Shown: positions 5,030 to 49,228, counted from the first letter of the stretch. The stretch: 56,658 nt of DNA from a virus (IMGVR_UViG_3300009156_000033:1-56658); one strand, 5' to 3'. Numbers and translations are program-made. Notes: a model not told the origin generated them from the sequence alone.

Positions 5030-8000
5030 TTATGGGGCTGGGGGTTGCGACAGGCGCTCAGCTTCCTGCACGCGCACGCTCTTGAGCAGGCGCCGGCGCA
5101 GGCGCTCGTCGGGTTCGCGAATCCGCTGCTTGGCTGCGTTCTTGATCGTGTCCGAGTCGATGCCGTATTGAGCGGCGTCCTGCATGAGCTTGTCAAGCGT
5201 CACGCCGTCGCCCTTTTCGAGCGCGTCGAGTATCTGATTGACGAGGCGGGTGCGGTTCTTCTTCGCGATCTCGTTCACACGGCTCAGGAAGGCGCGGTCC
5301 ACTTCGCCGACCGCCATCGCGAGCGGCTTCGCGCCCAAAGCGAGCTTGGCCTTGTCCGCCGCCGTTGGCTTGTAGAGCGGGCGTCCCTGGTCGTCGGTCA
5401 TCCAGCCTTCGCGATTGCCGATGGCTTCGAGCATCTTGCCCCAGTAGGCGGCGGTCGGCGCGAGCTTCGCACCCCACTTGGCGACGTCGTTCAGGTCGCG
5501 GTCCTCGCCCTGCATCGCCGGACCGATGACGGTGTCCCACAACTTCCACGCATCGGACAGCGCCGGGCCCATCCAGTCGGACGCCGTCTTGGGCAGTTGC
5601 GGCGTCACGGCCGGGCCAACATCGACGCCGGCGTAGCCGGGCAGGCCGCGCGACGCCCTCGGCGCCTTGCGATTGAGCCAGTCCTCCAGCGCCCACAGTG
5701 CGCCGATGGCGCCGAGGAACGGCAACGAGCGCAGGAAGTAGATGAAGGCGCGCGGACCGCCCATCGCGAGGAACGCCGTGAGATAACGCACCCACTCGGT
5801 GCCGCGCAGCGATGCGACGAACTCCATCTCCTTGACGAGGTACGCCTTGAACTGGCCGATGAGCCGACCCGGCGGCGTGCGCAGGATGCGGGGCAGCGAC
5901 GCGAGCGTGTAGGTGAATTGGCCGGCGCGAACCGCGTTGCGTGCGAAGGCTTCGGCCTCCTCGCCGCGCAGGGCAAGCTCGCCCTCGGCGTAGCGATAGA
6001 ACGCCGCGAACGCCTCGGGCCGGTTCAGGCGCTCGGCGAACTGGAACATGGCGAGCGGGTGGTACCATGGCACTTCGCTGTGCCCGGCTTCGAGGAACGC
6101 CTGCGCGGTCGCTCCGACGAGGTCGGCGTTGCGGTGCCAGATGTCGCGGAACTCGGGCGAGTGCGCGAACCGTTTGCCCGCGATCCAGTAGCGTGCCCCG
6201 GTCTTCGTCCATGTATGTTGGATGCCGCCGAGCCGGTTGATGAGCGCCGTCGTCGGGCGCCAACCGAGCTTGAGCATCGCTATAATGGTGCGGACGTTGC
6301 CCACGCCGCGGCTGAAGGCGAAGGGCTTCGTGCCGAACGGCGCGAGGATGTAGTCAGCGATCTGGTCGGAGAGCGAGTAGCGCCCGCGCACGTCGTCGAT
6401 GAGCGCTTCGACCTGCTTCTGCGTGTTCGGTGCCAAGTTGGCAAGGTCGATGCGGGCCTGCTTCAGCACCGGGTCGAGCGCGAGCTTCTTGCGCACGCTG
6501 TAGGCGTAGGCGGGCAGCGCGTCGAAGATGTCGTCCTCGCCCTTGAGGATGTTGCGCCGGTGCTGCATCGGTCCGGCGAACTTCGACGCTGGCTTGATGA
6601 CGACCACGGGCGAGCCTTCGGCGCGGAGCATACGCTGGATTTCGCGCACGTCGGTCCCGAGCGCTGCGGCGGCTCGCTGCGCCATGCGGAAGTATTGACC
6701 GCGCGTGAGCTTCGTCGGGAAAGCGGCGCTGGACGCGAACTCGTCGGTGATGGTGAGGCGCGTGACGCTCGGGTTCTCGCGGGCGTAGCGGAGCGCCTTC
6801 TCCTTCGCGGCGACGCGGGTTTCGGCGATGGCGACTGTCGTGCCGTCCGGCGTCACGACCCGGTAGGAGCCGCGCTCGATGTTCGTGATGTAATCGTCGA
6901 TGCCCCAGTGCTCAAGCTCCTCAAGCTCGCGCAAGGCTTGGCGGACGGCGTCCTGTCCCGGTCCGCGCAGGCGGTGGGCGCGGAACGCGTCGGCCTCGTC
7001 CATGCCGCCGAGGATGTCGTGCACCGCTGCGGCGCGTGCCTCGGGCAACGACTCGATGAGGTCGCGCTGCTTGGCGTCGATAATGGCGCGGCGCACCTCG
7101 TCGAAGTAACGACGTATCTCCTGCGCAACGGCGCGCTCGTGCTCAGGCAGTGCATTGAGCGCCGAGTCGTCCCCCGCCATGTTGGCGCGGAGCGCCGTCG
7201 TGATGCGCACGCGTGCTTCGCGGTTAAGCCCACGGCGCAGCGTTCGGAAGTGGTCGGTGTCGCGCGTCACCTGCCCTTGGTAAGCAAGCTCGGCTTCGAC
7301 GAGGCGCGTCACAAGCGGCCCGGCGACGGGGTCGTTGCGGAACTCGAACTCGGGCGACGCGATCCAGTCGCGACCCGGCATCACGTCCTGGCGGCGTATA
7401 GCATCGACGATGTCCGCTTCGCCGCCGAGTTCGACGTCGGCTTCAGGCGGACCGCCGGGCGGTGGCGTGGGCACATCGGGCGACGGCGGGACGGGGGTGC
7501 CTTCGCGGTTCAGGCGACGCTGACGGCGCACGTCCTCGACGGTGGGCATCTCCGATTGTTCGCCCAAGCCCTGCGCTTCAGACCGGCGCGAGAAGAACGA
7601 ACGCACCCCGCTCGGTCCGCCACCCGTCGCACCTTGGTTGGCGTCCGACACCTTCTGGACGGTGTTCGGGTCGCTGACGCCGCGTCGCGGCACGGCACGG
7701 AACCGAGCCTGTAGCAACTCCTGCATACGCTCGGCGGCGGCCTGCACCTGCGAGGCGTCGAACCGCGCCACCATGCGGTTGCCGGTCTTGACGAACTCTC
7801 CGACGATGTTGCGCAGGTCGCGGTCCAGAAACACGCGCCCGCCCGTCGAACGCGCCGCCGGGACGCTGATGATGTAGCCCTGCTGACCGCGTCCCATGCG
7901 GTGAATGCCCTTGGCCTCGACGACGTAGTCGCTGCCGTGCGAGGCGAGGAAGCTCGCCACGGCGCGCCCGCTGACGAGGTCGAAGCGCGGGTCGTGGGCG

Positions 8001-11000
8001 AGATTGGCCGGCGTCCAGTTGCGAGGCATGAGCAGGCCTGTGACGACGTCGCCGGACTGCGACTTGAACCGGACCATCTTGCCTTGGCCGCCAGTCGCGG
8101 TGAAGCCTTGGATGGGGTTGCCCGTGACGAAGTAGCGATTGGCGCGCTGGCCGGCGCGACCCGCGGTCAGGTCGGCGGGGCCCTTGTCGCTGTAATCGAG
8201 CGCCCATTTGCCATGCGCGAGGTCGGCGCCGGTGAGGTGAATTGTGCCCTCGGGCGCATTGACGCCGAAGCGCAGGCGGAACGCGGACGGCGCGACGTTC
8301 ATGCCTTTGGGGAACGTGACGTCGGTCAGCATCCCCTCGTAGGAGTCGCCGGTCTCGGTGTTGGACAGTTCGACGACGTCGCCGGTGCGCGAAAGGATGT
8401 CGGCGAGGCGATCTTGGGTGCCGTGCCAGCGGGCGCGCATCTCACGCAGGCTCATGCGCTGGAGTTCGAGCTTGGTGCGGTCTGCGTCCGTCGCCTTCGA
8501 CAACTTGTCGGCGAGGTCCGCCTCGCGCTTGTCGAAGGACGCTTCGGTGCGCTCCACGAACTTGCGCCAATCCTCGTTCACCTTCGCCTTCGACCCAAGC
8601 CGCCGCTTGAAGTCCGCCTCGATCTCTGCGCCCGTTGGCACGTGCCGGTTGTCGGCGATCTCCCATTGCTGCACGCGCAGGCCAGCGGTGAAGATGTTCG
8701 ACGGGTCGGTGCCTGCGGCGAGTTCCTCGTCGCTCCGTAGCTGCGCGTTCCAATCATCGTGCACGACGATCTCAAGGTCGTAGTCGCCGGTGCTCTTAAG
8801 CTGCTCGATAAGCTGGCGGTAGGCGGGCAGGATTTCGGCGTAGGCGGCCGCCTGATCGGCGTCGGGCAGGAGCGCTTGGCGCCCAGTGAACTTGCGCGCG
8901 ATGTCCTGCTTGACCTCAATGGAGCCGTCCGGGTTGTAGTCGATGCCGAGCCCGAGCAGGCGTTGCACTTCGGGGTTGGCGCCGAGGTACTCGCTCACGA
9001 CGAGGTCGCCGTAGCGGTTGTAGATGTCCTCGGCGTCGATCTTCACGGTGCCGGCGGCTTCGGCGGTCGTGTTCGCGTTGAGCGACTTCATCTTGCGCGA
9101 CGCCATCGCGGCGGGACGCAGCTCGGCCTGCAACGGCAGCACCATGTAGGTGTACTTGGCGCCGTACTTCGAGCCGTCCGGGTTGGTGCCCTCGGACACC
9201 ATGCCGGTGCGTTTGATGCGCCCGAGCGTTTGGACGAAGACGTTGATATCAGCGGCGGCTTGCCCGATTTGCATGTGTCGCGGGCGCTTGTCGCGGAACT
9301 TCACGCTCGCGTGCGCCGACAAGCCCGTCGAGCCGCTCGCGTTGAGCAGCATTCCCTCCACGTCGCCATTGTTAAACCCGTTGACGACGCGGTTCTTGTT
9401 CGCGCGCGGGAACACTCGGTAGATGCCCTCGCCGGTCTCGAAGTTGCGGTACTCGATGCCGCTGGTGCGACCCGTCAGCTCCGACATGCGCACGCCGGCC
9501 TTGGCGAGCTTCTGCACGATGTAGTCGATCGGGCTGATGGGGAAGCGCGACTCGACGGCGTCGGCGAGCGACTGTATCTGGCGGTAGTAGTCGCCCAAGC
9601 CGAACTCGTCCGGGTCAACCTTGTAGATGCGCGTGTCGCCGTTGGGCAGCTTCTCCGTGACGCGCAGGGTGCGTTCGAGGGCGAACTTGAGCAGTTCGTT
9701 CCACCGTAGCTTGATCTCCTGCCCGGGCCGTATGCCATTGTCGGCGACGTAGTGGTCGAGAAACGACTCCATCGTGTTGCTGACCGAGACGAGCGGCTTC
9801 TCGCCCTTCTTCACTGCGGCGATGGCGTCGGCGACGATGTGGTCGGCCTTCGCGGCGAGCAAGAGCTGGCTGATTTGGTTGTGCACGACGGAGGCGAAGT
9901 CCGTCATGTCGATCTGTGTCTGCGTCTGCGCCGTGGAGCCTTGCACGCGCGTCTTCATCGCGGCGCTGAACCGCACGATTTCGCCGAGCACGTCCGTCAC
10001 CGCGTCAATGTCCTCAACGAGCTTGGCCGGGTCGGCGATGGGCGGTTGCTTGACCTCGAAGCTGACGCCGGTGAAGTCGCGTTCGCGCCGGATGTACTGA
10101 CCTGCCTTGGCGAGCGCTTCGCTAACGGCCTGCTGGAGAGCGACGCCGCCGCGCTTCATCGCATCGACGACCTGCGCGAAGGATTGCGCCGACCGCCCAA
10201 GCGCAGTGCGGAAGTACACGGGCATGTTCTCCGGGCGCTTCGCGAACGTGGCGCTCATGTAAAGGACGCCGCCTTGACCGGGGAGCGTGCCCGCGCGTCG
10301 CAGGAGGCCGGGCACGGCGATGGTCGTGCGGTTCGCGCCACTCCCACGCTGCACCTGTCCGCCGCTGATGAACGCTGCCTGCATGGAGTCGGTCGCGTTC
10401 CCGGCCGCTTCGTGCGCCTCGTCTAAGATGACGATGGTCGGGTTGGCTTCGGCGATCCGCTCAAGGAACTCCTGCCGCGCATTGCGCATGTTGACCTGCG
10501 AGTAGGTCGCGAAGATGGCGTTGTAACCTGCGGCGGCGAGACCGCGCTCAGTCACCTCCTGCATGGCGCGGGCTTGGACGCCCGGACCGGGCGCTCGGTG
10601 CACGACGCGCCCCTGCGCATCGACGATGCTCGCCTTGCCCGGGTCGCCGAAGATGAGCGGGCGCACCTCCGTGTGGATGTCGAGCAGGTCGCCGTACATG
10701 TCCGTGAACAGCTTCGGGTCCTTCGTGAAGAACACGGGCACCTTGCCGTTGAGGATGGCGTAGCGAATGAGCGCCGCACCCTGCCGCCCTTTGCCGATGC
10801 CGGTTTCGTCGCCGATGATGAGCGCTTCGCCGCCGGTCTCGATCTGGTCGATAGCGAGCGCGACGCCGTCGATCTGTTCGGCTGCCATGACGTTGCGCAG
10901 CTCGTCCACCTCCATGTTGAGGCGATCGGCGACGAACTCGTCGATGGGACCGACGCGGGCGACGAGCTTGTCGAGCGCAGCGTGCACGCCGCCAGCGATG

Positions 11001-13699
11001 TTCTTGGGGATGAGCGTCCCGAACGGCGGCGCGTCGGATCGCGGGACGTAGGGGACTTGGAACTCCGTGCCCGCTACAGCAGGCGGCTTAGGTACGCTTC
11101 CAGGCTGAGCTGCTCCGCCAGCGCCCGCGCCTCCGGTTGGGGCAGCAGCGGGGGGTTGCGCAGGTGGGACCACGCCACCTTCCACTGGTGCAGCGGGCTT
11201 CCCTCCACCGCTGGGTTGAGGAGCAGCAATTTCGGCGTTCGTGGGTTCGTCAGAAGGTCGCTCGGGAGGAAATTGAGCGCTTCCTGGGGCAGGTCGCGGT
11301 CCAGGCGCAGGTTGGCGTGGGCCACCTCCCCCTCCGACGACTCCGCCACCAGCCGCTCCAGCAGGTCGGCTTGCAGGCGCAGGAAGTCCTCCTGCTTGGA
11401 CGGCGGGCGCTGGCCTTGGCGCAGCAGGGTCAGGAAGTCCGGGCTCTCTTGCACCGGGCACCACACTTGATCGGCGTCGGTCAATCTCACTGCGTATCCT
11501 TTCGGCTTCCCGCCAAACGTCGCTCCACGAATCGTAACGCGCAACCTCTTTCGGGGCGAGTTCGCCGCCGATGGGAAGCTGTCGGCGACCTGCGACCACG
11601 ATAACACGGACCGGCCACTTCGCGCCCTGCTTGGCGTAGAGGTCGCCGGCCACCTCGAAGTTGGCGACGACGTTGTAGTGACCGTAAACGTAGTTCTCGA
11701 ACACCCACTGTGCGCCCTTGCCACCCGGGCCTTCTTCGCGGCGAGCGCCCATGATGATGGAGCCAACGCCGTCGTCCTGCAACGCGTCGAGGGCGCGGAG
11801 CGCGATGATGTGTTCGAGGCGCGTGATGCCGTAGCCGCCGAAGTTGACGTTCGGGATCGAGCCGAACGGCGGGTTGAGCTGGACGAACGGGTAAGACGTG
11901 CCGGGCGTGTAGGTAGTGGCGTCGTGCGGCGTGACGGTGCCGACGCCGAAGCGTTGGAGGGACGCTTGGCGCTTCGGGTCGAGTTCGTTGCCGTGGCCGC
12001 CGGCGACGTTCGAGCCGATGAGCAACATGCCATTGCCGGCGGTGGCGTCGTAAACCGGCGCGTCAGGCGTGATGCCGGCGGCGTAGGAGAGCGCGTAACT
12101 AAGCGGCGCAGGCGTCGAGTAGGCTTGGAGTTCGACGCTGGTGCTGGTGCGGGCGCTGAGCGTCGGCTGACGATTGTAGAGGTCGATGAGCTGCGTGAAC
12201 TTGCCGAGCGGGGCGAGTGCCGGGTTGACGGCGATGGCGTGGGCTTGGGCGACGACCTCGGACTCGACGGCCTCCTGCACGTCCTTGATAGGGCGGCCCT
12301 GGTCGGCGGCCAGCTTGCGCAGGGCGGCGGACTTGGCCTGCGGAGTGTCGGCGGAGGCGATGATGTCGGCGATGGGCGACTGTGCGGCGGGCGGCACTGA
12401 AGCGGGTGCCGCCGGAGCGGTTGGCGGATCGTGCCGATACATCGGCTTGCCCGACAGTGGGTCGTCGCGATAATGCTTGAATCCAAGGCGCTCGTAGAAG
12501 CGGTTCAGCGCGGGCTGCATCGCAGGCGACTCCGCAACAGCGGTCAGGAACACAGGCTTACCGGCAGCGTTCGCCTGTTCGATTACTTCGCGCATCTTAG
12601 CCGTGCCAATACCACGACCTCGCGCTTCTGGCGGCACACTCAAGCCAGACACCTTGAAACCGTCGGGGTGCTCGGTGACGACGATGCGAGCTTCGGGCGC
12701 AGGCGCAGCGGGCGGCGCCGGCGCGGGCGCGCCGGGTTGCTCGACGGGCGGCGCGGGCACAGGAGCAGGCGGCACAGGCGCGGGCGGGGCGGACAAGAGC
12801 GCCGTTGGCCCTCGCGGCGCAGGCGGACGCGGTCTCGGGCGAGGTTCAAGCACGGTTGGCTCGGGCGACGGCGGTGTTGGGCCACGGTCCGTCAACTGCG
12901 CCGGTGGCTCAGGCGTGATGTCGCGGGCGGCGTTGAAGCGGGCTTCGGCACGTGCGGCGACCGACTCGCGCCACGCGTCTAACAGGCTCGGCACGCGCCC
13001 AGTAGCCCGCGCGGTTCCCGCGAGCACGCCGCCGGTCTGCAAAGCATCACCAACCGCGTTGTAGTACGCCAGCGGGTCGGGTTCGCTACCAAAGCGGGAA
13101 TGCTTTACCACGTTCTCAACAACATCAGGCACCTGCGGCAGCGTCGTGGCGAAGATAGCAGGCAGCGCAACTTCCGGCGCTACCGTAGCCGCCCCCGCAA
13201 TCGCCGCACCCGCAGGCGACGTGAGCGCATTAACGCCGCGCACCGCACTTTCTCGCAATCCGATGCTGACCGGCGCCTGCGCACGCTGGACGCTCTCAAG
13301 CAAACGTGGGCGCGCGGCGTTGGCTTCCCACTGTGCTAATTGCTCCGGCGTCATGTCGTTCGTGACGGTGGGTGGACCCAACGGTCCAAGGGCGAACAAG
13401 CGATTGAAGCGATCAAGCAAACCGGGACCGGGCGGCGGACCGCCAGAGAGCTGCTCGGCGGTGATGGGCGGGAGCGGTGGCAGACCCGGCTCCTCGGCAA
13501 CGGTGGTACCAGGCAGCGGTAGCGCCGGGTGCGACACGTACTCGTCTTGGTACCGGGCGGGGACGTCGGCAACGGAGCGCGAAGGGCGTGGGGACGGTAG
13601 CGGAATCAGCGGTTCGACCGCCGACCGCATCTCGGCTTCGGTCGCGTCATCGGGGAACTCGACGGGGCCGACGCCGTCCACTTGGATGAGCTTGGGCAT
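5030..13699 (-). CDS. Giant polyvalent (DarB-like) virion/ejection protein: GNAT + N6-adenine MTase + Strawberry-notch SF2 helicase + C-terminal helical domain
   Basis: Start MPKLIQVDGVGPVEFPDDATEAEM right after the upstream stop (2889 aa). GNAT: VPPEARGRGIG...FYERLGF. MTase: YSTPAPL, DATAGNG, NPPF. Helicase: GDETGIGKGRQ, ATYSQ, LDEAH, SATFAKRP, ELTGR, GSTGLSAHA, QTLGRIKRTG. Confidence 0.85.
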   Translation of the reverse strand: MPKLIQVDGVGPVEFPDDATEAEMRSAVEPLIPLPSPRPSRSVADVPARYQDEYVSHPALPLPGTTVAEEPGLPPLPPITAEQLSGGPPPGPGLLDRFNRLFALGPLGPPTVTNDMTPEQLAQWEANAARPRLLESVQRAQAPVSIGLRESAVRGVNALTSPAGAAIAGAATVAPEVALPAIFATTLPQVPDVVENVVKHSRFGSEPDPLAYYNAVGDALQTGGVLAGTARATGRVPSLLDAWRESVAARAEARFNAARDITPEPPAQLTDRGPTPPSPEPTVLEPRPRPRPPAPRGPTALLSAPPAPVPPAPVPAPPVEQPGAPAPAPPAAPAPEARIVVTEHPDGFKVSGLSVPPEARGRGIGTAKMREVIEQANAAGKPVFLTAVAESPAMQPALNRFYERLGFKHYRDDPLSGKPMYRHDPPTAPAAPASVPPAAQSPIADIIASADTPQAKSAALRKLAADQGRPIKDVQEAVESEVVAQAHAIAVNPALAPLGKFTQLIDLYNRQPTLSARTSTSVELQAYSTPAPLSYALSYAAGITPDAPVYDATAGNGMLLIGSNVAGGHGNELDPKRQASLQRFGVGTVTPHDATTYTPGTSYPFVQLNPPFGSIPNVNFGGYGITRLEHIIALRALDALQDDGVGSIIMGARREEGPGGKGAQWVFENYVYGHYNVVANFEVAGDLYAKQGAKWPVRVIVVAGRRQLPIGGELAPKEVARYDSWSDVWREAERIRSEIDRRRSSVVPGAREPGLPDPAAPRPAPAVQAGGLPAPASRPAGAAGGGVVGGGGGPRQPAPGPRPAPGSAQFPPERPSDEPTNAEIAAPQPSGGGKPAAPVEGGVVPPAQPPAAAPTGGAGAGGAAQPGSVPKPPAVAGTEFQVPYVPRSDAPPFGTLIPKNIAGGVHAALDKLVARVGPIDEFVADRLNMEVDELRNVMAAEQIDGVALAIDQIETGGEALIIGDETGIGKGRQGAALIRYAILNGKVPVFFTKDPKLFTDMYGDLLDIHTEVRPLIFGDPGKASIVDAQGRVVHRAPGPGVQARAMQEVTERGLAAAGYNAIFATYSQVNMRNARQEFLERIAEANPTIVILDEAHEAAGNATDSMQAAFISGGQVQRGSGANRTTIAVPGLLRRAGTLPGQGGVLYMSATFAKRPENMPVYFRTALGRSAQSFAQVVDAMKRGGVALQQAVSEALAKAGQYIRRERDFTGVSFEVKQPPIADPAKLVEDIDAVTDVLGEIVRFSAAMKTRVQGSTAQTQTQIDMTDFASVVHNQISQLLLAAKADHIVADAIAAVKKGEKPLVSVSNTMESFLDHYVADNGIRPGQEIKLRWNELLKFALERTLRVTEKLPNGDTRIYKVDPDEFGLGDYYRQIQSLADAVESRFPISPIDYIVQKLAKAGVRMSELTGRTSGIEYRNFETGEGIYRVFPRANKNRVVNGFNNGDVEGMLLNASGSTGLSAHASVKFRDKRPRHMQIGQAAADINVFVQTLGRIKRTGMVSEGTNPDGSKYGAKYTYMVLPLQAELRPAAMASRKMKSLNANTTAEAAGTVKIDAEDIYNRYGDLVVSEYLGANPEVQRLLGLGIDYNPDGSIEVKQDIARKFTGRQALLPDADQAAAYAEILPAYRQLIEQLKSTGDYDLEIVVHDDWNAQLRSDEELAAGTDPSNIFTAGLRVQQWEIADNRHVPTGAEIEADFKRRLGSKAKVNEDWRKFVERTEASFDKREADLADKLSKATDADRTKLELQRMSLREMRARWHGTQDRLADILSRTGDVVELSNTETGDSYEGMLTDVTFPKGMNVAPSAFRLRFGVNAPEGTIHLTGADLAHGKWALDYSDKGPADLTAGRAGQRANRYFVTGNPIQGFTATGGQGKMVRFKSQSGDVVTGLLMPRNWTPANLAHDPRFDLVSGRAVASFLASHGSDYVVEAKGIHRMGRGQQGYIISVPAARSTGGRVFLDRDLRNIVGEFVKTGNRMVARFDASQVQAAAERMQELLQARFRAVPRRGVSDPNTVQKVSDANQGATGGGPSGVRSFFSRRSEAQGLGEQSEMPTVEDVRRQRRLNREGTPVPPSPDVPTPPPGGPPEADVELGGEADIVDAIRRQDVMPGRDWIASPEFEFRNDPVAGPLVTRLVEAELAYQGQVTRDTDHFRTLRRGLNREARVRITTALRANMAGDDSALNALPEHERAVAQEIRRYFDEVRRAIIDAKQRDLIESLPEARAAAVHDILGGMDEADAFRAHRLRGPGQDAVRQALRELEELEHWGIDDYITNIERGSYRVVTPDGTTVAIAETRVAAKEKALRYARENPSVTRLTITDEFASSAAFPTKLTRGQYFRMAQRAAAALGTDVREIQRMLRAEGSPVVVIKPASKFAGPMQHRRNILKGEDDIFDALPAYAYSVRKKLALDPVLKQARIDLANLAPNTQKQVEALIDDVRGRYSLSDQIADYILAPFGTKPFAFSRGVGNVRTIIAMLKLGWRPTTALINRLGGIQHTWTKTGARYWIAGKRFAHSPEFRDIWHRNADLVGATAQAFLEAGHSEVPWYHPLAMFQFAERLNRPEAFAAFYRYAEGELALRGEEAEAFARNAVRAGQFTYTLASLPRILRTPPGRLIGQFKAYLVKEMEFVASLRGTEWVRYLTAFLAMGGPRAFIYFLRSLPFLGAIGALWALEDWLNRKAPRASRGLPGYAGVDVGPAVTPQLPKTASDWMGPALSDAWKLWDTVIGPAMQGEDRDLNDVAKWGAKLAPTAAYWGKMLEAIGNREGWMTDDQGRPLYKPTAADKAKLALGAKPLAMAVGEVDRAFLSRVNEIAKKNRTRLVNQILDALEKGDGVTLDKLMQDAAQYGIDSDTIKNAAKQRIREPDERLRRRLLKSVRVQEAERLSQPPAP

Positions 13700-13700
13700 G

Positions 13701-14516
13701 TCATTTGGCCGACGGCGTCCACTTGAGGTTGCCGTCCGCGTCGCGGCTGAAGCGACCGACGATGGCGTTGGTGTTCGCGGGCGCGTTCGTCGAGACGGTC
13801 GGCGCAGGCACCAAGGCGCGGTCGCCCATGAGCGTGCTGCGACCACGCCGCACTGCTTCGAGCTGCTGGAGCAGTTCACCGTAACGGGCGTGCTTCGGAT
13901 GGTTCGGGTTGCGGGCAGCGGCGAGCATGTCGATGCTGTCGAGTTCGGCAAGGATGCCCCGCTCCATCGCATTGTAGCCCGGCATACGCTGTGCCTCGGT
14001 GAGCGGCTTCTCGACGTAGTCGGGGATGTAGTGCTGCGTCTTGGGGCCGGAGCGCCCGAACAGGCCGACGCGCTGCTTGGTCGCCGGGTCGATGGCTTCG
14101 ACGAGGGTCGTGTCCAAAGCTGACATGGGCGCCGCGAACTCCTTCTCGGCGAGCGCCGCGCGGCGGTTCTCAACGGCGATTCGCGCCTTGTCGTAATCGA
14201 GCAGGCGCGACTCCTGCGCCGTTTGGTTGGCTTCCTGCGCCGTCTGATGCGCGACCTGCTGCTGGAACTGGGCGGCCTGCTGCCCGAGCCGCTGAAGGTC
14301 GAGCAAGCGCGACTGCTCAAACTGGCGCTGGCGCTCCGCCTGCTCAGCTTCGCGTTGCGCCAACTGCGCCTGTCGCTCGAACCGGGCTTCGGCGAGTGCT
14401 GCGGCGCGCTGGTTCTGGTCGGCGACGGCGATACCAGCGCGTGCGCCCGCTTCGAGCGCCTGCGTGAAGAACGCCGGACTCACGTTGAGCCAAGGAGGGA
14501 TGTCGCCAAGGGCCAT
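13701..14516 (-). CDS. Putative internal virion/ejection protein
   Basis: Gln/Ala-rich coiled coil, directly upstream of the giant protein. Confidence 0.55.
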   Translation of the reverse strand: MALGDIPPWLNVSPAFFTQALEAGARAGIAVADQNQRAAALAEARFERQAQLAQREAEQAERQRQFEQSRLLDLQRLGQQAAQFQQQVAHQTAQEANQTAQESRLLDYDKARIAVENRRAALAEKEFAAPMSALDTTLVEAIDPATKQRVGLFGRSGPKTQHYIPDYVEKPLTEAQRMPGYNAMERGILAELDSIDMLAAARNPNHPKHARYGELLQQLEAVRRGRSTLMGDRALVPAPTVSTNAPANTNAIVGRFSRDADGNLKWTPSAK

Positions 14517-44135: not shown

Positions 44136-44297
44136 ATGACGCCAGTATTTCACAGCGAGCTTCCGACAACAAGCCTTCGCGGTGCGGGTTGGCGTGTTGT
44201 AGGCGAGCGTGGTGGCGGTTCATGGAGCCGCGAGAGCCGCCCGCGAGTGGACACGCACCCGCTTCAGACAAAGATGTTGTGGGAGGTGACGACGTGA
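44136..44297 (+). pseudogene. Truncated C-terminal fragment of an XF1762/Mom-like GNAT gene
   Basis: SLRGAGWRVVGERGGGSWSRESRPRVDTHPLQTKMLWE resembles that family's C-terminus (recalled from memory); GTGA overlap with the next gene. Confidence 0.5.
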
Positions 44298-45760
44298 ACG
44301 CGGACGCCGTAGTACCCAACCACCCGCCGTCCATTGACCCCGGCGCGATCCGTCTCGCCGTCGTAGCTGAAGCCCCGGCCGTCGAGGAATGCTCGTGGCG
44401 TATCTGCTCCCAAGGCCACGGTTACGGTGGCGAGCACTGGGAGAACCGCCAGATCGTCACGCGCGATCGCTGCCCTGCCTGCGGCTCGACCCAGTGGACC
44501 GAGCGCCCGACGCCCTTGGTCGGCCAGAGCGGACGCCTCCTGAACGACCTCCTCAAGGACGCCGGTCTGCCGCGTGAGCGCGTCTGGGTCGGCAACGTCT
44601 CGCGTCGTCCGCTTGCCGAAGCCGAAAAGACGCTCGACCAGAACCGCGGCGGCTTGGCCCGCCTCGCCTACGACCTGTCGCAGTTTAAGCCCAACTGCGT
44701 CCTCGCGCTGGGTGGCCTTGCGCTCAAGGCGTTCTTGGGCGACCACCGCTTCGGCGACTCCATCACCAACTGGCGCGGCAGCGTGTTTGAGGGCGTACTC
44801 GATGGCGTCACCTACAAGGTCGTTGGGGCAATGCACCCAGCGGCCATCTTGCGCGAGCCGAGCCAGCTTGCCCTTCTGCGCTTCGACGTTGCCCGGAGCG
44901 TGGCCGAGGCGGCTTCCAGCACGCTGGACACCCCCCGGCGCGTTGTGGACGCGCCAAACGACGCCTACGCGGTTGTGGAGGCCCTCCAGCGGATCCGGGC
45001 ACGCCGCGAACCCGTTGGCTTCGATATTGAGGGAGGGTGCGAAACGGGCGTCACCGTCCTGTCGTTCGCCGACACCCCACTGCACGCCTTGAGCGTGCCG
45101 TTTCGGCGCATGGATTGGTCGCGGGTGTGGGGCGACCAGGGCGAGGACACCATCTGGTACGCCGTCCGCCTCCTGTGCGAGGACGAGGCGGTGCCCAAGG
45201 TTATGCACAACGCTGGGTACGAGACGTTCGCCCTGCGCTGGCTGCACGGCATCCGGATCCAAGGCGTCGAGGACTCGATGCTGGCTTTCCACGCCGTTTG
45301 GCCCGAGCTGGACAAGGCCCTGGACGTGGTCGCGTCGCTGCTCACCCGTCAGCCGTACTGGGGTACGACGAAGGACTGGCGCACCGACGAGGACCGCGAC
45401 ACCTACAACGCCATCGACTCCTGCGTCTGCCTCGAAGCGTTCCAAGCTATCCAACGCCTTGAGGAGTGGACGCCCGCCGTGGCGGCATACTACCGGCACT
45501 GCCGCGACCTGCTCGAGCCGTGCGGCGAGATGTCCTTCGCCGGCATCCCCTACGACGCTGCGGCGCGCGACACCCTCGTTGCCAAGCTCAAGGCCGAGGT
45601 GTATGCGTTGACCGGCGAACTGGACACGCTCGCGGGCATCGCACCGCCGACGTTCGCCGAGGTTGCCGAAGCCGTCTGCATGAAGATACGCCTGCCAAAG
45701 GTCGGGGACTGGGCCGACATCCTGACGTATGCCCGCCCAACGATGCGCGAGACGCTATGA
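44294..45760 (+). CDS. DNA polymerase N-terminal part: family-4-like uracil-DNA glycosylase + 3'-5' exonuclease
   Basis: VAEAPAVEE...PLVGQSGRLL, VGNV, LALGGLAL, MHPAAILR; ExoI FDIEG, ExoII MHNAGYE, ExoIII YNAIDS; GGAGGT SD before GTG 44294. Confidence 0.85.
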   Translation: MNADAVVPNHPPSIDPGAIRLAVVAEAPAVEECSWRICSQGHGYGGEHWENRQIVTRDRCPACGSTQWTERPTPLVGQSGRLLNDLLKDAGLPRERVWVGNVSRRPLAEAEKTLDQNRGGLARLAYDLSQFKPNCVLALGGLALKAFLGDHRFGDSITNWRGSVFEGVLDGVTYKVVGAMHPAAILREPSQLALLRFDVARSVAEAASSTLDTPRRVVDAPNDAYAVVEALQRIRARREPVGFDIEGGCETGVTVLSFADTPLHALSVPFRRMDWSRVWGDQGEDTIWYAVRLLCEDEAVPKVMHNAGYETFALRWLHGIRIQGVEDSMLAFHAVWPELDKALDVVASLLTRQPYWGTTKDWRTDEDRDTYNAIDSCVCLEAFQAIQRLEEWTPAVAAYYRHCRDLLEPCGEMSFAGIPYDAAARDTLVAKLKAEVYALTGELDTLAGIAPPTFAEVAEAVCMKIRLPKVGDWADILTYARPTMRETL

Positions 45761-47292
45761 AGCAGCCCACCCTCAATTTCGACGAGTCGCCCAGCCCGGT
45801 GGCCCGGGAGCGATGTGAGCGGGAGCCCGTGCAAGGACGCTCATCGGCGCATGGTTCCGCCGGCACAAACGCCTTGCACAGCGGCGACTCGTCGATTGAC
45901 CCGGACTGGGAGGTGCAGGATGACGACGACCCGGACGACGGCGATCCGGCGCCCGAACCGAGCGACCCGACGGACGACTCCGCGAAGCCCAAGCGCACCA
46001 AGAAAGCGCCCAAGCCCCCGCCCGACCCCGCCGGCCCCCGCTCCATCGCCGCCCGCATCGTCTCGCTCGCGCAACAAGGTATCCTCACCGACACCGAACG
46101 CGGCGAACTCGATACCCTCCTCGATCGCCACATCAACAGCGGCTCGACCAAGCAGCTCCGCGAGTGGCTTTACGAACGCTGGGCCCTGCCGAAGCGCTAC
46201 ATCAAGGAGGGCTCGCGCAACACGACCAAGCTCTCCGTCGCCGTAGACGCCCTGCTTGCCACGTACCGCCAAACCCGCGATCGCCGCCTTGAGCTCCTGC
46301 TGCAACTCAGCGATCGCAAGACGCAGCTCGAATCGCTCGGCTGCAAGCTCGACAAGGACGGGCGCATACGCTTCTCCCTGAACATCGCCGGCACCAAGGT
46401 CGGGCGCATGGCCTGCAACGCCTCGCAAACCGGCTCCGGATTCAACCTACAAACCGTCACCCGCGCCCACCGCCACCTGTTCGGCGCCGACCCGGGCCAC
46501 GACTTCTACCAGATTGATCTCAAGACGGCCGACGGCTGGACCATTGGCGCGGAGTGCGCCGCCCTCGGCGATACCCGGATGCTCGACGACATGCGCGCCG
46601 GCTTCAAGCCTGCCAACGCCGTCGTCCTATTGCTCGAGCACGGCGTAGCGGTCAATTCTTGGCCCATGGAGCGCTGTCTTGAGGCCCAGCGCGGCATCGA
46701 CAAGGGTGCGTGGCAATACCTCGCCTGCAAAAAGGGCATCTGGGGCACGGCTTACGGCCTCGGCGACGTCGCACTGAGCGAGAAGATCCTTGAGGAAGCG
46801 TGGAAGGAGGCCGGCGAGCTGGTCCGCGTCACGGCCGCCGACTGCAAGCGCCTACAGGCCGCCGTCCACGCCCGCTATCCCGGCATCAAGCGGCGCTGGG
46901 AACGCATTAAGATGCTGCTTGCCCGAGACGGCAAGCTGGAGGCGTGCGGCGGCCAAGTCCGCGACTTCTTCGGCCCAAAAACCGACCACGGCACGCACAA
47001 GGAAGCCTATGCCTACTCGCCTGCGGCCAACACCGCATGGGCCAATGGCCTCGCCCTGCTCGCCATCTGGCGCGACCCGGCCAACATCGCCCCGGACGGC
47101 ACACGCATCTTCCGCCCGCTCCTCCAGGTTCACGACAGCGTCCTCGGCCAAGCCCCGGTCGAGCGCCGTGCGTGGGTGGAGGAACGCATACCGACGTGGT
47201 ACGCGAACCCGCTGACGGTCGCCGGCACGACCTTCGTCATCCCCTACGAAGCGTGCCGCGGGACGAACTGGGGCGACGTGAAGGCGATATGA
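45757..47292 (+). CDS. polA: DNA polymerase family A, polymerase part
   Basis: INSGSTKQL, GTKVGRMA, NLQT, motif A IDLKTAD, motif B KKGIWGTAYG, motif C LQVHDS. Confidence 0.85.
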   Translation: MKQPTLNFDESPSPVARERCEREPVQGRSSAHGSAGTNALHSGDSSIDPDWEVQDDDDPDDGDPAPEPSDPTDDSAKPKRTKKAPKPPPDPAGPRSIAARIVSLAQQGILTDTERGELDTLLDRHINSGSTKQLREWLYERWALPKRYIKEGSRNTTKLSVAVDALLATYRQTRDRRLELLLQLSDRKTQLESLGCKLDKDGRIRFSLNIAGTKVGRMACNASQTGSGFNLQTVTRAHRHLFGADPGHDFYQIDLKTADGWTIGAECAALGDTRMLDDMRAGFKPANAVVLLLEHGVAVNSWPMERCLEAQRGIDKGAWQYLACKKGIWGTAYGLGDVALSEKILEEAWKEAGELVRVTAADCKRLQAAVHARYPGIKRRWERIKMLLARDGKLEACGGQVRDFFGPKTDHGTHKEAYAYSPAANTAWANGLALLAIWRDPANIAPDGTRIFRPLLQVHDSVLGQAPVERRAWVEERIPTWYANPLTVAGTTFVIPYEACRGTNWGDVKAI

Positions 47293-47483: not shown

Positions 47484-47686
47484 ACGCCATCTCCATCACC
47501 TCCAGTTGGCGCGTCTTTCCCGGTTACGTGCGCCGCCCCGACGGCACCTATGCCCGCACCGTTGAGATCGTCAATCATCACGGCGGACGCTCGCGCAGCC
47601 ACGAAACGCTCGTGCGCGACGCCAAGGGCAGGCTGCTGCGGGTCGAGCACAGCGCACGCGCTCGCACGAAGCGCAAGGAAGCATGA
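47480..47686 (+). CDS. Hypothetical protein
   Basis: GTGA-coupled. Confidence 0.5.
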   Translation: MNAISITSSWRVFPGYVRRPDGTYARTVEIVNHHGGRSRSHETLVRDAKGRLLRVEHSARARTKRKEA

Positions 47687-48426
47687 GTGACCCCGTCCAC
47701 ATCATCAGCCTTGGCGCAGGTGTGCAGTCCTCAACGATGGCGCTCATGGCCGCTGCGGGCGAGATAATGCCGATGCCAGTGGCGGCGGTGTTTGCGGACA
47801 CGGGCGATGAGCCGGACGAGGTTTACGTGTGGCTTGCGAAGCTGGAGAAACTGCTGCCCTTCCCGACGCACCGCGTCATGTCGCATCACGGCACGCTGCT
47901 GGCGAACCTGTTCAAGGGCGACCACTCGCAAATACCCGCGTTCCGACCCGGCGAGATTGGCAAGCGCCAATGCACCGAACACTGGAAGCGCCGCCCGATT
48001 CGCCGCGAGATGAAGCGCATCGCGAACGGCACGCCGGTCGTCCAATGGATCGGCATAAGTGTGGACGAGATCAGCCGCGCTAAAGACAGTGACGTGCAGT
48101 GGCTCGTTAACCGGCACCCACTCCTAGAAGCGCGAATGCACCGCCGTAACTGCGTTGCGTGGCTTCGCCGTCGCGGTCTGCACGCGCCCAAGTCCGCGTG
48201 CTTTTACTGCCCCTACCACACCGACGCACAGTGGCGTGGCTTCAAGAGCGACGGGCAATCCGCCACGTGGAGGCGCATCATCGCCGTGGACAAGCTCCTC
48301 AACGCTCGTGGCGAGTACCTCCACTCGTCCTGTCAACATATTGCCGACGTGGACTTCTCCACCGAGGAAGAACGCGGCCAGCTCAACATGTTCAACAACG
48401 AGTGCGAAGGCATGTGCGGCGTATGA
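47683..48426 (+). CDS. PAPS-reductase-like (PP-loop adenine nucleotide alpha hydrolase) protein
   Basis: ISLGAGVQSS, FADTGDE, RQCT, WIGISVDE, KSACFYCPY, ECEGMCGV. Confidence 0.8.
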   Translation: MSDPVHIISLGAGVQSSTMALMAAAGEIMPMPVAAVFADTGDEPDEVYVWLAKLEKLLPFPTHRVMSHHGTLLANLFKGDHSQIPAFRPGEIGKRQCTEHWKRRPIRREMKRIANGTPVVQWIGISVDEISRAKDSDVQWLVNRHPLLEARMHRRNCVAWLRRRGLHAPKSACFYCPYHTDAQWRGFKSDGQSATWRRIIAVDKLLNARGEYLHSSCQHIADVDFSTEEERGQLNMFNNECEGMCGV

Positions 48427-48508
48427 CAACAAGCCTGCGCGTCGAGCACAGCAGGCGGGCGCGCACGAAGCTCACGGCGGCGACGGCCCCAAGTCCAGCA
48501 CCCGCGCC

Positions 48509-49228
48509 ATGACGCCATACTACCGCGACGCGCAATGCACCATTTACCATGGTGACGCTCGCGAAGTCGTGCCGCGATTGCCGTACTGCGAAGCCGTCGT
48601 CACCGACCCGGTGTGGCCCAACTGCGTCGTGCCGCTTTATGGCTCCGACGACCCGTTCGCGATGTTCAGCATCACGTTGCACGTCCTGCCGCAATTACCC
48701 AAGCGACTCGCAGTCCACTTGGGCTGCGACTCCGACCCGCGCTTCCTGATGGCGGTACCCAAGACGCTACCGTTCTTCCGCGTCGTGTGGTTGCGCCTCG
48801 CCGTGCCGGGCTTCAAGGGACGCCTATTGCAAGGCTCCGACGTGGCGTACCTGTTCGGTGAGCCGCCTGTGTCGCGTAAGGGTGCGCATCTTATCGGCGG
48901 CGAATGCACCGACTCCTTCGGGCTTGGGCGCGAGTCCGACCATCCGTGCCCGCGCAAACTCAAGCACGCCAGCTGGCTTGTGACGCGCTGGACTGATGAC
49001 GGCGACACAATTCTCGACCCGTTCATGGGCAGCGGCACGACGCTAGTTGCGGCGAAGCTGTGCAACCGCAAGTGCGTTGGCGTCGAAGTCGAGGAGCAAT
49101 TCTGCGAGATGGCCGCGTTACGTCTGCGGCAGGAAGTGCTCGACCTACGTCAAGGCGACGGCCCAACATCCACGACACGCGGCCACAGCGCCCCTCCCGC
49201 CACGCACGGGTCGATGTTGAAGCTGTAG
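48509..49228 (+). CDS. N4/N6 DNA methyltransferase (beta class)
   Basis: IYHGDA, motif IV variant TDPVW, HPCPRK, LDPFMGSGTT. Confidence 0.8.
   Translation: MTPYYRDAQCTIYHGDAREVVPRLPYCEAVVTDPVWPNCVVPLYGSDDPFAMFSITLHVLPQLPKRLAVHLGCDSDPRFLMAVPKTLPFFRVVWLRLAVPGFKGRLLQGSDVAYLFGEPPVSRKGAHLIGGECTDSFGLGRESDHPCPRKLKHASWLVTRWTDDGDTILDPFMGSGTTLVAAKLCNRKCVGVEVEEQFCEMAALRLRQEVLDLRQGDGPTSTTRGHSAPPATHGSMLKL

Follow-up and report, generated by a model that had tools for sequence, protein, structure and literature searches.

The S-SBP1-like T7-type PolA, a family-A phage DNA polymerase, is described as having undergone fission between its exonuclease and polymerase parts, giving adjacent overlapping genes that originated by a +1 frameshift, and the same study also describes UDG-PolAs, where UDG stands for uracil-DNA glycosylase (Czernecki et al. 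2023, NAR, PMC10201439). Formal description of split family-A polymerases dates only from 2023 and covers just the exonuclease/polymerase boundary. Endonuclease-associated split genes of T4-like phages include Aeh1 nrdA/mobE, T4 39/60 with mobA, and 43A/43B of Aeromonas phages 25/44RR (Edgell, Gibb & Belfort 2010, PMC2988022). In LUZ24-like phages "DNA polymerase part I" is a 171-aa exonuclease located about ten open reading frames (ORFs) from part II (PMC3890496), and OM43 phages of the MEP401 type carry a split polymerase together with an unknown small ORF (PMC10580990). The thumb of these enzymes can also receive insertions: the thioredoxin-binding domain of T7 is placed at the thumb tip, between helices H and H1 (PMC11339088), and phiKMV-like PolAs have a different insertion of about 100 aa at the thumb tip (PMC10201439). 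Here we describe a pair of genes of the UDG-PolA lineage in IMGVR_UViG_3300009156_000033, a phage genome of about 57 kb and 64% GC from rhizosphere soil, in which the break lies inside the polymerase domain. The whole stretch analysed, 56,658 nucleotides, is referred to as the window.

We put at roughly 85% the probability that the two ORFs concerned encode the subunits of one heterodimeric family-A polymerase, with the thumb divided between the chains and nothing excised, spliced or bypassed. ORF1 (+) has its longest form from TTG at 44189 and its database form (P0062, 488 aa) from GTG at 44294, with a TGA stop at 45758-45760; ORF2 (+) runs from ATG at 45757 to 47292, so that the junction is an ATGA stop/start overlap at 45757-45760. 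Up to the first copy of a GELDTL motif ORF1 reads ...AEVYALTGELDTLAG..., and 42 further codons precede its TGA; ORF2 starts with 115 acidic and Pro-rich residues, followed by a second GELDTL and then LDRHINSGSTKQL. The two copies are 488 nucleotides apart (488 mod 3 = 2) and in different frames, share 15 of 18 nucleotides, and differ at three positions, each of them a third-codon position. An earlier note on this DNA had reported the motif coordinates, the change of frame, the ORF1 end and ORF2 start at the junction, a leader of about 115 aa, the 488-nucleotide spacing and the synonymous nature of the differences, and the sequence confirms all of them. The features of the locus are listed below, the helix names H and H1 following the nomenclature of the Klenow fragment.

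44294..45760, +, N-subunit gene: family-4 UDG-like domain, 3'-5' exonuclease, the first ~50 aa of the polymerase domain (to thumb helix H) and a 42-aa tail
45614..45631, +, GELDTL copy 1: last part (C-terminal) of thumb helix H, which lines up in register with the upstream anchor found in simple PolAs
45632..45757, +, N-subunit tail of 42 aa, AGIAPPTF...RETL: contributes the first half of the thumb-tip insertion and corresponds to two short helices when a fused relative is modelled
45757..45760, +, ATGA overlap: ORF2 ATG at 45757-45759, ORF1 TGA at 45758-45760
45757..45996, +, C-subunit leader, aa 1-80: disordered, acidic and Pro-rich; both its length and its sequence are hypervariable between relatives
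45997..46101, +, C-subunit head, aa 81-115, ...PAGPRSIAARIVSLAQQGILTDTER: ordered, and forms the other half of the thumb-tip insertion
46102..46119, +, GELDTL copy 2: helix leading into thumb helix H1, in register with the downstream anchor of simple PolAs (N.NS..Q)
46120..47292, +, remaining polymerase domain: thumb H1, hairpin, H2 and helix I, then palm and fingers

Profile searches support these assignments. ORF1 has a Pfam UDG match of 38.1 bits (cut-off 24.3), and the profile of the N-subunit family matches family-4 UDGs in the PDB at 5e-15 and the PREX exonuclease region at 7e-5. ORF2 matches Pfam DNA_pol_A (PF00476) with 39 bits (cut-off 34.3), and the PHROG 17 family "DNA polymerase" covers both ORFs contiguously, at profile positions 557-888 in ORF1 and 890-1207 in ORF2. 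Residues H459 and D460 of the C-subunit (the HD of motif C) are invariant in 41 family members, and the family profile aligns VHDS with QVHDE of Klenow; D254 is putatively assigned to motif A. A phmmer search of PDB sequences with ORF2 alone gave 0 matches, and since the family profile matches Klenow only in palm and fingers, the thumb was mapped through the simple UDG-PolA P0053, whose single motif aligns with Klenow ...HEIAG|EEFNLSSTKQ. With the exonuclease/polymerase boundary set as in Klenow, the N-subunit continues past it for about 50 residues of the polymerase domain and takes in helix H. The matches of a tblastn search against 50,697 phage records were all below 60% identity, those listed lying at 22-27%, and none was to N4; fold matches in BFVD include phage polymerases of UDG-PolA size, and a contig profile search of genomes gave two distant matches to Chloroflexia metagenome-assembled genomes (25-27% identity). 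Relatives on viral contigs were recovered with an alignment as query, a single-protein query giving no relative.

The split is found far beyond the window. Among database proteins (numbered P below) there are 42 standalone homologues of the C-subunit (386-541 aa, 43-82% identity), plus one with an intein, and 31 split homologues of the N-subunit (308-552 aa). They come from many metagenomes, and several N/C pairs are located on the same contig of 55-60 kb. In a quick IQ-TREE analysis of 59 polymerase domains, from which P0040 (intein) and P0015 (truncated) were omitted, the 41 split forms make up one clade with a Shimodaira-Hasegawa-like approximate likelihood ratio (SH-aLRT) support of 99; the 12 fused forms with the insertion are its sister group (support 90), and 6 simple PolAs form the outgroup (P0053, 54, 58, 59, 61 and 94, with P0052, 55-57 and 60 left out). 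No fused form above 42% identity was found in the near or longer length classes, the search of the longer class being weak evidence. Conservation of the split and its single origin on the tree are direct observations; as judged from these sequences the split is real and inherited across the clade, which is consistent with an old, single fission.

Three further observations concern the members of this lineage. P0040 (782 aa), a homologue of ORF2, carries an insertion of about 350 aa after ...NITGTE with a Pfam Intein_splicing match of 27.9 bits, below the cut-off of 35.8; this looks like an intein located close to motif A in the palm, which would be a second kind of mobile element in the polymerase lineage. 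The UDG domain of the split clade has an insertion of about 40 aa with a Cys/His pattern, SWxxC..GHG...RDRCPxCGS, at aa ~67-103 of ORF1 (44387-44497), in which C38, H42, C60 and C63 are invariant in 28 sequences and which the fused relatives do not have (columns 38-80); from its sequence it may be a zinc ribbon. Caulobacter phage Kuura (OQ067476.1, L002, 1578-4982) is a distant cultured relative in which the polymerase parts are also separate genes, Kuura_026 for the DNA polymerase and Kuura_029, annotated as hypothetical, for the exonuclease-like part; two small ORFs separate them.

The interval between the two motif copies behaves as coding sequence on both sides of the overlap. The N-subunit tail is kept in 32/32 homologues, with W473 invariant and D475 and P482 nearly invariant (P0062 numbering), and the ~25 aa before copy 2 (PAGPRSxAARIVxLAQ...) are conserved in the long-leader C-subunits. 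The tail, compared in 36 pairs of 9 sequences, has a ratio of nonsynonymous to synonymous differences per site (pN/pS) of 0.47; the head, in 21 pairs of 7 sequences, has 0.46, and the adjoining polymerase body 0.52. These values are rough, given that pS is about 0.68 and synonymous sites are near saturation. The G + C content at third codon positions (GC3) is 0.81 for the tail in the frame of ORF1 and 0.84 for the leader in the frame of ORF2, compared with 0.85 for the gene bodies, and by this measure the coding frame switches at ~45757. Constraint on tail and head, observed directly in these comparisons, is by the sequence measures equal to that on the enzyme body, which indicates that the interval is translated as protein in two frames and is not disposable. 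In the AlphaFold2 (AF2) model of P0001, the C-subunit of the window, residues 1-80 have a predicted local distance difference test score (pLDDT) below 50 and no secondary structure, followed by helices at 97-106, 112-121 (which carries GELDTL), 131-141 (H1), 163-173 and 176-194. Among C-subunit homologues the motif begins 7 to 144 residues from the N-terminus. In P0026, P0028 and L024 (3156-4772) the C-subunit leader has a CxxC...CxxC segment resembling a zinc ribbon (e.g. CQNPGC...CxxCG) in place of the acidic and Pro-rich part; the leader looks like a slot that takes different small modules.

Fused relatives show what the two halves of the interval form together. In the fused proteins P0044-49, P0051 and P0098-101 (745-916 aa, 35-42% identity) both halves are contiguous and in one frame, and P0050 (571 aa, probably partial at its N-terminus) likewise holds them contiguously. 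The N-subunit tail of the window aligns with residues 425-465 of P0046, the AF2 model of which (mean pLDDT 94.3, predicted template modelling score 0.91) has a long helix at 399-424, then short helices at 435-442, 452-458, 461-475 and 482-491, and after these a helix at 501-511 (H1), a β-hairpin, a helix at 533-543 (H2) and another long helix spanning 546-564. In the PDB the model is matched best by Klenow/Pol I (8oo6_A, E 2e-23, TMt 0.77), so that the PolA fold of exonuclease, thumb, palm and fingers is predicted on the fused relative P0046 and not on the window protein itself. From the model, the insertion comprises about 70 residues in four helices, is specific to the clade, and would sit between H and H1, the site of the T7 thioredoxin-binding domain; this placement is made because the modelled order of long helix, tip elements and long helix agrees with the helix naming of Klenow. 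In the split forms the break is located close to where the third insertion helix begins.

The repeat that brackets the insertion is not above chance as DNA: the 19-nucleotide repeat ranks 18th of 52 direct-repeat families in 3.5 kb, and thirteen 18-nucleotide windows reach at least 15 matches between ORF1 and ORF2. As protein it is above chance, a shared 6-mer being present in 1.7% of 5000 shuffles. Copy 1 is kept in all 32 N-subunit homologues (P0062-P0093) with the pattern G-x-L-[DSN]-x-L-[AG]-[GE]-[IL], and copy 2 in 42/42 C-subunit homologues (P0001-P0043 minus the intein-bearing P0040) with the pattern G-x-L-[DNS]-x-[LI]-[LM], G116 and L118 being invariant and E117 nearly so; the suggestion of the earlier note that both copies are under selection at the protein level is borne out by these counts. 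When the subunits are aligned by MAFFT with six simple UDG-PolAs, with upstream sequence anchoring the N-subunit and downstream sequence the C-subunit, the two copies occupy the columns of the single motif (LQTELNTIVG in P0053), and therefore about 12 ancestral residues are present twice. For this duplication hhalign paired 12 columns in local mode (P 0.0017, probability 15%) and none in global mode. In the unsplit polymerase of MW202489.1 (779 aa) ORF1 aligns to residue 408 and ORF2 from residue 423, and the 14 residues between the alignment ends equal the number left by joining at GELDTL. The earlier statement that the joined copies give a normal PolA thumb therefore stands as a comparison, the joined form being colinear with MW202489.1, and the join at GELDTL is wrong as a mechanism. 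Taken with the alignments, these data indicate that about 12 residues at the end of helix H were duplicated long ago, giving the two GELDTL copies that bracket the thumb-tip insertion.

Two other interpretations of the repeat were tried. A longer tandem duplication, in which the N-tail would correspond to H1/H2 of the C-subunit, was suggested by eye and by one MAFFT run and is unproven, hhalign finding the 12 columns only. A role of the DNA repeat as recombination substrate was rejected on its rank of 18/52 and on the nucleotide identity of the copies in relatives, which is 8-14 of 18, the resemblance being confined to the protein.

Structure modelling of the two chains, proposed in the earlier note, was carried out with N 215-488 and C 88-511 and gave a complex score of 0.88, with 0.00 for the best of 3 controls; a score of 0.88 was reached by 58/80 solved complexes and by 2/110 mismatched pairs. 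Three runs share at least 97% of contacts, and the partner pLDDT is at least 91. In the predicted complex N 432-447, where helix H ends and copy 1 is located, contacts C 176-199 and C116, thumb helix H of the N-subunit is placed against helix I of the C-subunit, and the interface also takes in the N tail (449-488) and the C head (88-126). Our reading of the ORFs as two subunits is made because the split is conserved and monophyletic, tail and head are constrained, the junction has a coupling geometry and helices H and I are in contact in the model. The earlier note had offered a two-subunit polymerase with a domain-swapped thumb helix; two subunits sharing the thumb is what we find as well, and "domain-swapped" overstates what is a fission inside the thumb-tip insertion and not a swap.

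In the arrangement that we propose, the N-subunit carries the UDG-like domain, the proofreading exonuclease and the first ~50 polymerase residues ending at helix H, and the C-subunit contributes palm, fingers and the remainder of the thumb, each keeping half of the thumb-tip insertion. We infer that the subunits assemble, and the two insertion halves, together with the packing of helix H (N) on helix I (C), may hold the heterodimer together, which would be a function of the insertion. The geometry of the ATGA overlap implies translational coupling, and the C-subunit would probably be made by termination-reinitiation there, its first ~80 residues being a disordered, hypervariable linker remnant. 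The helix duplication would be older than the fission, and both GELDTL copies would have been retained for their structural role, one helix in each subunit.

Several points weigh against this proposal. The complex score may reflect the model's memory of single-chain PolA structures and shows likeness, not binding, and the prediction was made on our own alignments and not on calibrated ones. For the duplication hhalign gives weak support (12 columns, 15%), which leaves the remaining tail uncovered; the near saturation of synonymous sites makes the pN/pS ratios rough. No clear Shine-Dalgarno sequence was seen by eye before the ORF2 ATG. The support as a whole consists of sequence comparison and models, and a minor fusion product made by -1 frameshifting at the overlap may exist.

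Removal of the 488-nucleotide interval, by recombination, splicing or ribosomal bypass, was the other reading of the earlier note. A group I intron, split-intein trans-splicing or gene-60-like bypass between the GELDTL codons would give one ordinary PolA, a single chain of ~93 kDa with the junction peptide ...YALTGELDTLLDR. A chain joined at GELDTL is exactly colinear with simple PolAs, phage PolA genes are known to harbour group I introns with HNH endonucleases, and HNH endonuclease genes are located at the junction in two related loci (L019, L016). The interval, however, codes for conserved protein in two frames with a coding GC3 and a constraint like that of the enzyme body, and relatives hold it in frame as a well-folded insertion. 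A scan of 45000-46800 against Rfam 15 gave no intron at E <= 10, its 4 matches being at chance level, and no intein or HINT domain was matched by Pfam in ORF1 or ORF2 at E <= 0.1. A split intein is further opposed by the tail, which has 42 aa, is helical in the fused model and does not begin with Cys or Ser, and by the disordered leader of variable length; bypass is opposed by the absence of a stop codon after the take-off site, where 42 conserved codons follow copy 1, and by a gap that is 488 nucleotides of coding sequence. Among relatives the spacing of the copies varies from 350 to 1300 nucleotides and their nucleotide identity falls to 8/18. The contigs of four DNA runs were compared over 45300-46500: X1 spans the region with 0 differences, X2 does so as two separate pieces, and coverage by X3 and X4 is incomplete (X1 and X2 are possible sources of the window DNA), and no joint, indel, loose end or deleted form was found where the region was covered. 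With conserved coding sequence throughout the interval, no intron or intein signal and no deleted DNA form, we consider removal very improbable. The X3 contigs stop at 45611 and resume at 46089, near the motif copies; with a depth of 3, and with X4 breaking elsewhere, this is not interpretable, and the gap would fit population variation confined to the junction interval.

A -1 shift by some of the ribosomes at the ATGA overlap, or another form of readthrough, would give a single chain of ~1000 aa with the whole insertion. ORF2 lies in the -1 frame relative to ORF1, a frame without stop codons from 45466 onward, and the fused relatives show that a single chain with the insertion is viable; yet no slippery heptamer of the type X XXY YYZ was seen by eye at the overlap, and in L019 and L016 the ATGA leads into an HNH gene, other ORFs intervening in L022, L003 and L024. 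Since other genes follow the overlap in relatives, fusion cannot be the conserved product, and we regard it as improbable, if slightly less so than removal. An error of assembly or sequencing, or a recent inactivating frameshift in a decaying gene, had to be considered because the starting point is a single metagenomic contig. The same split recurs, however, in dozens of database proteins of differing sample origin and in 9 further distinct loci, its members form one well-supported clade, the contigs of the four runs have no indel where they cover the region, and both genes are under purifying selection. The comparative data exclude an assembly error. The earlier note had coupled such an error with homologues carrying the same insert in one continuous frame; homologues of that kind do exist, at 35-42% identity, and the split is no assembly error. 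A conserved heterodimer with a divided thumb is the reading we retain.

Both subunit genes are visible in ten distinct loci (numbered L), the window included and the duplicates L017/L042, L020/L021 and L003/L018 counted once each. Other genes are located between the subunit genes in 7/10 of these, and in further loci only the region upstream of the polymerase core is visible, as follows.

Window, L017 and L020: direct ATGA overlap of the subunit genes
L022: a 54-aa ORF between the subunit genes
L019: a gene for an HNH_3 (33 bits, cut-off 24.8) and AP2 endonuclease, fitted exactly between
L016: an HNH-like ORF (24.7 bits, below the 24.8 cut-off) and two more ORFs
L025: a small ORF and a 195-aa ORF
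L026: a small ORF and an N6/N4 DNA methylase
L003: a C-5 cytosine methylase (E 6e-49)
L024: three unassigned ORFs
L027: an HNH-like ORF (18.3 bits, below cut-off) upstream of the polymerase core; only that region visible
L034/L037: a methylase upstream of the polymerase core; only that region visible
L035: a 253-aa ORF without Pfam match upstream of the polymerase core; only that region visible

In L016, L019 and L026 the ATGA overlap runs from the N-subunit gene into whichever ORF comes next, and the ORF map of the window has no endonuclease gene at the junction. The junction behaves as an ordinary gene boundary, and comparison of the loci indicates that it is a hot spot for gene insertion, receiving HNH endonucleases and DNA methylases. 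Endonucleases may have caused the original fission, or may have invaded a gene that had been split before.

In L016, L025 and L026 the polymerase is in three pieces. The small ORF is homologous to the leader and head of the window C-subunit (MKQ...PAGPRSxAARIIALA...) and ends ...SDAEAxGQLG, and the last piece restarts MTxxER...GELNxLLD, which points to a second overlap duplication at the second break. Nine C-subunits have short heads, corresponding to 9 changes on the tree, some of which may be artefacts of start calling or contig edges (the P0006 sequence, for instance, has L as its first residue). Over its first 80 residues the last piece of L016 is 85% and 75% identical to L026 and 48% and 50% to the window, and from about residue 120 the same piece is 75-90% identical to the window; this mosaic pattern fits recombination or co-conversion next to the insertion site. 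A more general reading, which we offer tentatively and think rather less probable than not, is that the codons around GELDxL are a recurrent hot spot of recombination or homing, at which insertions repeatedly left overlapping helix duplications so that each fragment kept a complete helix. The thumb-tip insertion would then be the domesticated remnant of a first event, flanked by the 12-residue duplication, and a second round just upstream of copy 2 would have given the three pieces, the middle one ending in a third, degenerate copy (...SDAEAxGQLG). If this were true, essential enzymes split by mobile genes would have a general means of survival in overlapping helix duplication.

Other genes around the polymerase were noted as well. 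The methylase of L026 (2647-3531) is 45% identical (E 1e-66) to a methyltransferase of the window at 48155-49228 (+), ~0.9 kb downstream of the polymerase, a methylase of the same kind thus occurring at differing positions around the polymerase in related phages. Directly 3' of the polymerase, at 47683-48426 (+), is a PAPS-reductase-family gene (PHROG 424, E 4e-39), which overlaps the longest methyltransferase ORF and may be part of a DNA-modification module. For an ORF of 3096 aa at 5030-14320 (-) the sole PHROG match is weak (E 3e-6), and the family matched has no known function. In size the ORF is reminiscent of the giant virion proteins that some podophages have, and because the match is weak the phage is not called N4-like.

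The clade shows that the polymerase domain itself is divisible, with the DNA-gripping thumb supplied by two chains and in some phages by three. Since the break is at the site where T7 recruits its processivity factor, these phages offer a natural system for the tolerance of the thumb to fission and for the roles of thumb-tip insertions. The junction hot spot with its mosaic flanks makes fragmentation of essential replication genes by selfish genes testable beyond the T4-like phages. For annotation, such gene pairs should be taken as subunits of one enzyme, and not as truncated or frameshifted polymerases.

No description of a thumb-split UDG-PolA was found in the literature searched, and the cluster lists of PMC10201439 may already include members of the clade. 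Like the LUZ24 and MEP401 types, the present phages have polymerase parts on separate genes and small unknown ORFs between them; the descriptions of those types, in the passages drawn on, mention no UDG domain, thumb split or flanking motif duplication (PMC3890496, PMC10580990). Like the thumb-tip insertions of T7 and phiKMV-like PolAs, the insertion found here is lineage-specific, ordered and between H and H1; unlike them it is all-helical, with four short helices, has no detected homology to either, and is the place of a gene break. The likeness to the split genes of T4-like phages is that an essential replication enzyme is made as reassembling polypeptides and that some relatives carry a free-standing HNH gene exactly at the split with overlapping start/stop; as for gene 43 of Aeromonas phages 25/44RR, the endonuclease may have entered an already split gene (PMC2988022). 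The T4-like split polymerases of that account belong to family B, whereas here the enzyme is of family A, the window has no endonuclease gene, the clade is old and diverse (C-subunit identity down to 43%), and methylases are found at the site too. With the S-SBP1-like enzymes the present system shares a family-A phage polymerase, its fission into two overlapping genes, a predicted complex that superposes on unsplit relatives, and inheritance across a clade. It differs in that the S-SBP1 break is at the exonuclease/polymerase boundary and leaves the new termini solvent-exposed, whereas here the break is ~50 residues into the polymerase domain, the two long helices of the thumb come from different chains, the break lies in a dedicated thumb-tip insertion of the UDG-PolA lineage, and the junction has been invaded by other genes and has given rise to three-piece variants. 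What is new in comparison with the described systems is a break inside the polymerase domain at a thumb-tip insertion, its occurrence in the UDG-PolA lineage, the conserved helix duplications at the breaks, the three-piece forms and the mosaic hot spot.

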